From the NCBI GenBank assembly GCA_013265495.1, contig MU058213.1, positions 6,345,149 to 6,399,871 of the forward strand: a stretch of DNA of 54,723 nt, given 5' to 3'. Shown here in pieces: positions 18,089-18,197 of this stretch. Under the pieces are notes generated by a model. It did no database searches, was not told the origin of the DNA, and saw only the letters and a program-made list of their open reading frames with translations. This stretch comes from Vicugna vicugna. Taxonomy: Eukaryota. How positions within the stretch are numbered: position 1 is the stretch's first letter; every line of letters starts with the position of its first letter. The translations under genes and the position numbers were made by a program.

Positions 18089-18108
18089 ATGGAAAATATG
18101 CATCTAAG
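18089..18108 (+). CDS. FAM81A: FAM81A exon 2 coding part (MENMHL+AG); apparent donor is GC-type AAG|GCGAGT
   Basis: ATGGAAAATATGCATCTAAG encodes the FAM81A N-terminus MENMHLR; phase 2 joins exon 3 at 19150 in frame. Confidence 0.8.
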
Positions 18109-18197
18109 GCGAGTTCGGACTATGCCCCGACACAGCCAGTCCCTGACCATAGCACCCTACTCGTCCGTGAGCCTAGTGGAGCAACTGGAGGATCGGA
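18109..18197 (+). repeat. Direct copy of the first 89 nt of exon 3 fused to the end of exon 2
   Basis: 88/89 identical to 19150-19238; the single mismatch is A18151 vs G19192. Confidence 0.97.

Follow-up and report, generated by a model that had tools for sequence, protein, structure and literature searches.

An apparently young copy of the exon 3 start in intron 2 of vicugna FAM81A, and an upstream GT donor that keeps the full-length reading frame

In the vicugna gene FAM81A an 89 nt segment, the start of exon 3, is present twice, once at the head of the intact exon and once directly behind the end of exon 2, and an in-frame GT donor upstream of the copy, here called D1, keeps a full-length reading frame. 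The window, that is the whole stretch of 54,723 nt that was analysed, carries the copy on the plus strand at 18109–18197, and it agrees with 19150–19238 at every position except one (A18151 in the copy, G19192 in exon 3), as a preliminary description of this DNA had already reported. Splice modelling from ATG 18033 through D1 into exon 3 yielded an in-frame protein of 377 aa that extends to the natural stop and starts MAQRSTVFPSLVTEER. The explanation preferred here, to which we assign about an even chance, is that the copy is a young germline repair patch made from the gene's own spliced mRNA and that the gene survives by means of the older GT donor upstream. The preliminary description had proposed that the gene was rescued by an accidental GC donor formed at the left end of the copy, and that this could explain why the event was tolerated. 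The sequence observation behind that proposal stands, and the site is a credible candidate donor as judged from its rank and its predicted pairing with U1; the rescue, however, is likely unnecessary, since splicing at D1 would already give the full-length frame, and use of the GC site in RNA is to be taken as a candidate feature predicted from the sequence.

The whole FAM81A gene lies on the plus strand of the window, where exon-by-exon protein matches together with an open frame identify it as the orthologue (Pfam PF28217); every coding exon is present and open. The protein has been described as a component of postsynaptic condensates, reported as brain-only in human and mouse, and residues 1–36 of mouse FAM81A are stated to matter for condensation (PMC10919877). 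The 3′ part of a likely exon 1 (423–462) is CpG-rich and is assigned from its composition and from the donor CCG/GTGAGT (462/463). The short form of exon 2 (18012–18079) extends from the acceptor TTTTTACAG to donor D1 (AAG/GTGTAA, 18077–18085, cut at 18079/18080) and includes ATG 18033. It is followed by a 29 nt extension (18080–18108) that belongs to the placental MENMHL isoform, carries the ATGs 18089 and 18098, and contains the TAA (18105–18107) at which the frame of ATG 18033 stops when D1 is unused. It was confirmed in the sequence that ATG 18089 encodes MENMHL and that the exon ends with AAG at 18108. At the place of the lost donor of this longer form, D2, there now stands AAG/GCGAGT (18106–18114), a candidate GC donor that has the form of a spliced exon 2/exon 3 junction written in DNA. 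The remaining 952 nt of intron 2 (18198–19149), presumably the ancestral intron, begin with ATATAC and end with CCCTTCCGCAG, and they are followed by exon 3 (19150–19423), the intact template of the copy, with ATG 19163 opening a 357-aa frame that starts MPRH. Exons 4 (31385–31503), 6 (42412–42518), 7 (48704–48839) and 8 (50354–50549) were placed by homologous proteins, exon 5 (40685–40814) matches the Camelus ferus model P0007 in 44 of 44 aligned residues, and the coding part of exon 9 (53275–53399) ends with KPEAPM and the stop.

Some further features of the locus may be mentioned. The exon 9 acceptor (53262–53274), TCTCTTCTTAAAG, ends with AAG, the less common form. Exon 8 and one upstream stretch differ from the Camelus ferus model P0007; the first exon of that model is resembled by 13701–13781 (24 of 27 residues), its start is absent from all others among the 87 homologues shown, and it is probably a false exon. 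A decayed, internally repetitive part of intron 6 (45632–45928) resembles a segment inserted in frame in the bat model P0025 (60% over 40 residues); the window sequence contains stops there. Interspersed repeats of two families, 60–89% alike, are present at 10611–10782, 25456–25711, 31697–32004, 35398–35668 and 44275–44578 (family 1) and at 12857–12974, 28318–28438, 31230–31350 and 44133–44273 (family 2); they are likely to be LINE tails and a tRNA-derived SINE.

Comparison of the window with itself returned the duplicated segment as a match of 91 nt at 99%, far above chance, with the template 1041 nt away. The order in the DNA is thus the end of exon 2 (MENMHL-AG, 18108), the copy, 952 nt of intron and the intact exon 3. 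When the exon–exon junctions of the gene were examined as 20-mers, only that between D2 and exon 3 was present in the DNA (one of nine), the remaining eight not being fused in the window. The flanks of the copy showed neither a target-site duplication (4–15 nt sought) nor a poly(A), and the bases on its 3′ side, after 18197, have no second occurrence in the window. An L1 retrocopy or processed pseudogene was therefore rejected, the copy moreover lying at its own locus, and RNA editing was rejected as the source of the mismatch because the DNA of the copy has A and that of the exon has G. The copy is likely to be young, as judged from its divergence from exon 3 (1 mismatch in 89, 95% interval 0.03–6.1%) and from the retention of all six CpG, the rest of the intron having a CpG observed/expected ratio of 0.19. 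A18151 would encode Ile. None of 188 proteins has Ile at this position (Met 128, Val 15, pattern misfit 45), which makes a coding allele an unlikely source of the mismatch. At the left end of the copy, AG(G) is common to donor and acceptor, the G at +1 being included if the old donor began with G. The intron resumes at 18198–18205 as ATATACTT. Removal of the copy and of one further base, so that G18109 is joined to 18199, creates AAG/GTATAC with a predicted U1 duplex of −5.7 kcal/mol, and it is a plausible guess that this was the former donor D2.

D1 is the sole GT or GC site that keeps the frame of ATG 18033, and the 16 N-terminal residues of its product are identical to those of the pig model P0023 (16/16). 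In RNA spliced at D1 the copy falls wholly inside the intron, and the sequence of D1 itself is untouched by the copy; the open reading frame is therefore kept without GC splicing. The products of D1 and of the GC site would be identical except for their first 16 or 7 residues, respectively. Of 87 homologues, 40 have a start of the D1 type (19 from reptiles, 11 from placentals, 5 from marsupials, 4 from birds and 1 from coelacanth), the others starting with MENMHL or MHLRR (15, all placental), with MPRH (13) or with none of these types (19); these homologues are cluster representatives and no species sample, and their N-termini are mostly automatic gene models. The D1-type start is also present in three monotreme proteins, and both start types are annotated within marmot, chinchilla, black bear and fur seal. 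This distribution of starts across the homologues indicates that D1 is the older donor and that the lost D2 is a placental alternative situated 29 nt downstream. Among the 15 listed of the 302 members of the main placental cluster, ten start with MENMHL or MHLRR and two with MAQRS, and because the former type prevails there, D2 was possibly the predominant donor in placentals, in which case losing it may not have been without cost. Protein look-ups found no camelid protein with either a MAQRS or a MENMHL start among the matches listed, and the listed cluster members include no camelid besides P0007. The N-terminal strings were not found in 12 of the 14 supplement files of PMC10919877, in which alignment figures may be images. 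D1 is a weak donor, with a predicted U1 duplex of −5.2 kcal/mol and rank 305 of the 3276 GT sites, the six donors farther downstream in the gene having predicted duplexes of −7.0 to −12.9 kcal/mol.

Comparison of AAG/GCGAGT with the donor consensus MAG/GURAGU confirmed agreement everywhere except at +2, as had been claimed. Splicing from 18108 to 19150, with the acceptor TTCCCTTCCGCAG at 19149/19150 (AG with a pyrimidine tract), would give a 368-aa protein starting MENMHL. The preliminary description went too far in calling this the only frame-preserving join, since the MENMHL frame stays open as far as the natural stop with any of seven GT or GC dinucleotides; the site at 18109 is the best of the seven and the sole one to restore the sequence exactly, and the separate donor D1 keeps the frame of ATG 18033. 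On a rough seven-position matrix, the GC site ranked 3 among the 2498 GC dinucleotides of the plus strand, and its predicted U1 duplex is −6.3 kcal/mol, compared with −4.7 at 18167, −6.8 at 18237 and −4.9 at 18241. Both GC motifs of higher rank, 53312 in exon 9 and 19150 at the start of exon 3, are situated in coding exons that the homologues read through. The top-scoring GC donor motif of the window is CAG/GCAAGT at 53309–53317; it lies in the read-through coding exon 9, so that even a perfect GC motif may go unused. The exon 3 acceptor, CAG/GCGAGT (19147–19155), is itself a near-perfect GC donor motif, similar to a recursive splice site. The 8-mer AGGCRAGT has three matches in the window against 3.56 expected, and 69 of 100 shuffles reach three; its enrichment as a sign of selection was rejected, the count not exceeding expectation. 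One of the matches, at 53310, lies inside coding exon 9. The presence of the motif at 18107 results from the copying of the exon 3 start to that place.

A further GT site pointed out earlier, TCC/GTGAGC (18164–18172, cut at 18166/18167), is present within the copy, as it is within exon 3 (19207/19208). It is a weak cryptic site whose use would add 58 nt, as had been stated, and shift the frame, but it would not simply force initiation at ATG 19163, since RNA spliced at 18167 would retain five upstream AUGs (18012, 18033, 18089, 18098 and 18122) and a 73-aa frame that overlaps ATG 19163. Initiation context also differs between the two main starts. The context of ATG 18033 is strong (AAGAAA ATG G, positions −3 and +4 being A and G), and that of ATG 18089 carries a T at −3. 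In RNA spliced at D2 or at the GC site, ATG 18033 opens a frame of 24 codons that spans both ATG 18089 and ATG 18098. A start codon located inside an earlier frame with strong context is reached by leaky scanning, and the MENMHL protein would therefore need leaky scanning to be made from either RNA. The first codons of exon 2 are ATG TGA, a start-stop (18012–18017), ATG 423 in the likely exon 1 opens a 17-codon upstream ORF once joined to exon 2, and the 5′ region as a whole is rich in upstream AUGs. As for evidence from transcripts, the preliminary description had proposed that RNA linking exon 2 to G19192 would be consistent with the GC donor. Such a link is expected from D1 as well as from GC splicing and cannot separate the two donors. 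Likewise, the proposal that GC rescue would be refuted if no transcript joined exon 2 to exon 3 in frame offers a test that cannot fail while D1 works.

The reality of the copy has to be weighed before its consequences. Among the sequencing runs, 14 of the 24 listed (DNA or unlabelled, under three organism labels) hold 0.91–0.96 of the sampled words, and the modelled share without the copy is about 0.94, so that the run shares are nearly neutral and lean slightly to presence; the probability of at most 7–8 copy-specific words having been sampled is 0.32–0.45. Six RNA runs hold 0.06–0.34 of the words, compared with 0.16–0.25 expected from spliced forms alone, and were not counted as evidence. 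A metagenome scan for the exon 2 end gave eight loci, all of which match over the pattern only (21–27 nt) and were put down to chance. No homologue of 31–100 aa was returned by the protein search for the read-through frame that opens at 18089, the three read-through frames (3/3) were absent from the protein collection by exact look-up, and a tail search returned 33 proteins, none of which has the camelid tail. It is conceivable, though unlikely, that the copy is an assembly artefact or an allele of a single animal, the 89 nt having been added during assembly, for instance from spliced reads or a retrocopy, and living animals having a normal GT donor at 18108/18109. The copy is indeed 99% identical to exon 3 and about one short read long, the top DNA runs end at 0.96 of the words, close to the share expected without it, its read-through frame is missing from the protein collection, and deletion of copy and one base leaves the plausible donor described above. 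Against this, the substitution occurs in none of the 188 proteins and copied spliced reads would carry G, the other eight tested junctions are unfused, and, were the copy absent, four runs under two organism labels, at 0.95–0.96, would need almost no other difference. The silence of the protein collection means little, since the ordinary exon 3/intron 3 read-through frame is absent from it likewise.

If the copy is real, the choice of donor becomes the question. GC-AG introns make up about 0.8% of the introns of coding genes in human and mouse (PMC7242645, PMC3167603, bioRxiv 10.1101/479493). We consider it quite improbable that the GC site acts as the main donor, by which the MENMHL isoform would be kept and the event made tolerable, and a dependence of FAM81A on this site is judged just as improbable from its sequence. 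The site lies exactly at the old exon end, departs from the consensus at +2 alone and has a predicted U1 duplex better than that of D1; natural GC donors are reported to show a stronger consensus at the other positions, better U1 pairing marks those GT>GC sites that continue to splice (bioRxiv 10.1101/479493), and MENMHL-type starts prevail among the listed placental cluster members. On the other hand, about 15–18% of GT>GC sites are stated in the same source to give normal transcripts, at levels of 1–84%, and identical 9-mers can act oppositely. GC donors are described as favoured by enhancers upstream and where the density of downstream enhancers is low (PMC3167603), and since the intron from the GC site would begin with 89 nt of exon sequence, this counts against its use. 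Better-scoring GC motifs are read through in exons 9 and 3, and D1 makes the rescue superfluous. As a possible secondary donor beside D1 the site is nevertheless a credible candidate, and, given a real copy, its detectable use appears from the sequence to have a chance somewhat short of even. A related proposal is that repair wrote the junction into the gene itself with the intron kept, and that a latent, masked donor now serves as a GC donor regenerating the MENMHL isoform. The exon junction complex is reported to suppress donors that are reconstituted at exon–exon junctions (PMC6224609), and this complex would presumably be absent just upstream of a motif encoded in DNA; we regard the proposal as rather doubtful, although less so than the main-donor reading.

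The least probable reading, to which very little weight is given, is that both donors of exon 2 are too weak, so that most transcripts skip or mis-splice exon 2 and the protein from ATG 19163 (357 aa) is made in reduced amount. The candidate donors near exon 2 are all weak (−4.7 to −6.8 kcal/mol), 13 of the 87 homologues have the MPRH start, and the Camelus ferus model P0007 omits exon 2; yet ATG 18033 and the 16 codons that it opens show no change relative to pig, the MPRH starts are mostly automatic contig calls or hypothetical models, and joining of exon 1 to exon 3 buries ATG 19163 in an out-of-frame upstream ORF. The template of the copy may also be sought elsewhere than in RNA. We consider it very unlikely, although less so than the skipping of exon 2, that a polymerase switched on the shared AG(G) to the DNA of exon 3, the gene running on D1. 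Donor and acceptor have AG in common, extended by the G at +1 should the old donor have begun with one, the template is only 1041 nt distant, and expression in the germline would be unnecessary. Both ends, however, must then hit splice sites by chance: a start at one of 129 AGG sites (2 kb, either strand) together with a break landing on the donor amounts, on a rough estimate, to about 3 in 100,000. An RNA template is favoured because spliced RNA accounts for the acceptor start and the donor landing together.

Under the preferred explanation of repair from spliced RNA, a break would have occurred at or just after donor D2 and would have been mended on spliced FAM81A RNA or its cDNA, the left side being guided by homology to exon 2 and the right side closed by end joining. 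Such a one-sided repair would keep the intron and lose D2, splicing would shift to D1, and the GC site would be left as a possible secondary donor. In human cells, breaks are reported to be repaired on spliced mRNA of the broken gene itself, with whole-intron deletions as the outcome (PMC12065846), and class 2 templated insertions are described as free of target-site duplication and poly(A), with spliced cDNAs among their templates (PMC5110952). A germline RNA template sits badly with the brain-only expression reported for FAM81A in human and mouse. The event probably took place after the camelid lineages had split, which is placed at 11–25 million years ago (PMC13751797). No report on camelid FAM81A and no direct precedent were found in the literature searched, outside which most subscription papers fall, so that their absence is not proven.

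With a full-length frame still available, the consequences for the animal are probably slight. A genuine copy would represent a scar, inherited and one-sided, that RNA-templated repair left at the locus of its own template. The scar known so far is the loss of whole introns in tumours and cell lines, and an aborted form in which the intron is kept would be a new signature to be sought in mammals. The locus would also show, as a natural experiment, which donor is chosen when a weak ancient GT competes with a near-consensus GC. If the copy is an assembly error, it has no such significance.

Among known systems, the copy is similar to the class 2 templated insertions, or TSIPs, described by Onozawa and Aplan (PMC5110952) in being a short patch with an intact template and a germline origin, and in the features of flanks and templates already mentioned; it differs from them in that their templates are distant, whereas here the template belongs to the same gene at 1 kb and a splice junction is reproduced exactly at the left end. 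With RNA-templated repair leading to whole intron deletion (PMC12065846), and with the reverse-transcription model of intron loss (PMC3652778), it shares a spliced junction in the gene's own DNA. In contrast to whole intron deletion as reported there, exon 3 and 952 nt of the intron are still in place, as after a one-sided event, and the scars described in PMC12065846 are somatic or induced. The copy thus misses a defining feature of each family, the distant template of the one and the lost intron of the other, and resembles both while being a member of neither. GC-AG introns of the U2 type and GT>GC variants (PMC7242645, PMC3167603, bioRxiv 10.1101/479493) likewise have GC at +1/+2 and the consensus elsewhere, but the candidate site of vicugna consists of copied coding sequence and did not arise by a point change, and it faces a competing natural GT 29 nt upstream. 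The RS-5ss (PMC6224609) are comparable because the motif is the one created in RNA by the splicing of exon 2 to exon 3; they differ in being defined by a MaxEntScan threshold, with the GC site as no more than a candidate, and in that the junction is here fixed in DNA. Finally, compared with FAM81A as described, the vicugna gene has the donor of the MENMHL isoform replaced by the copy.
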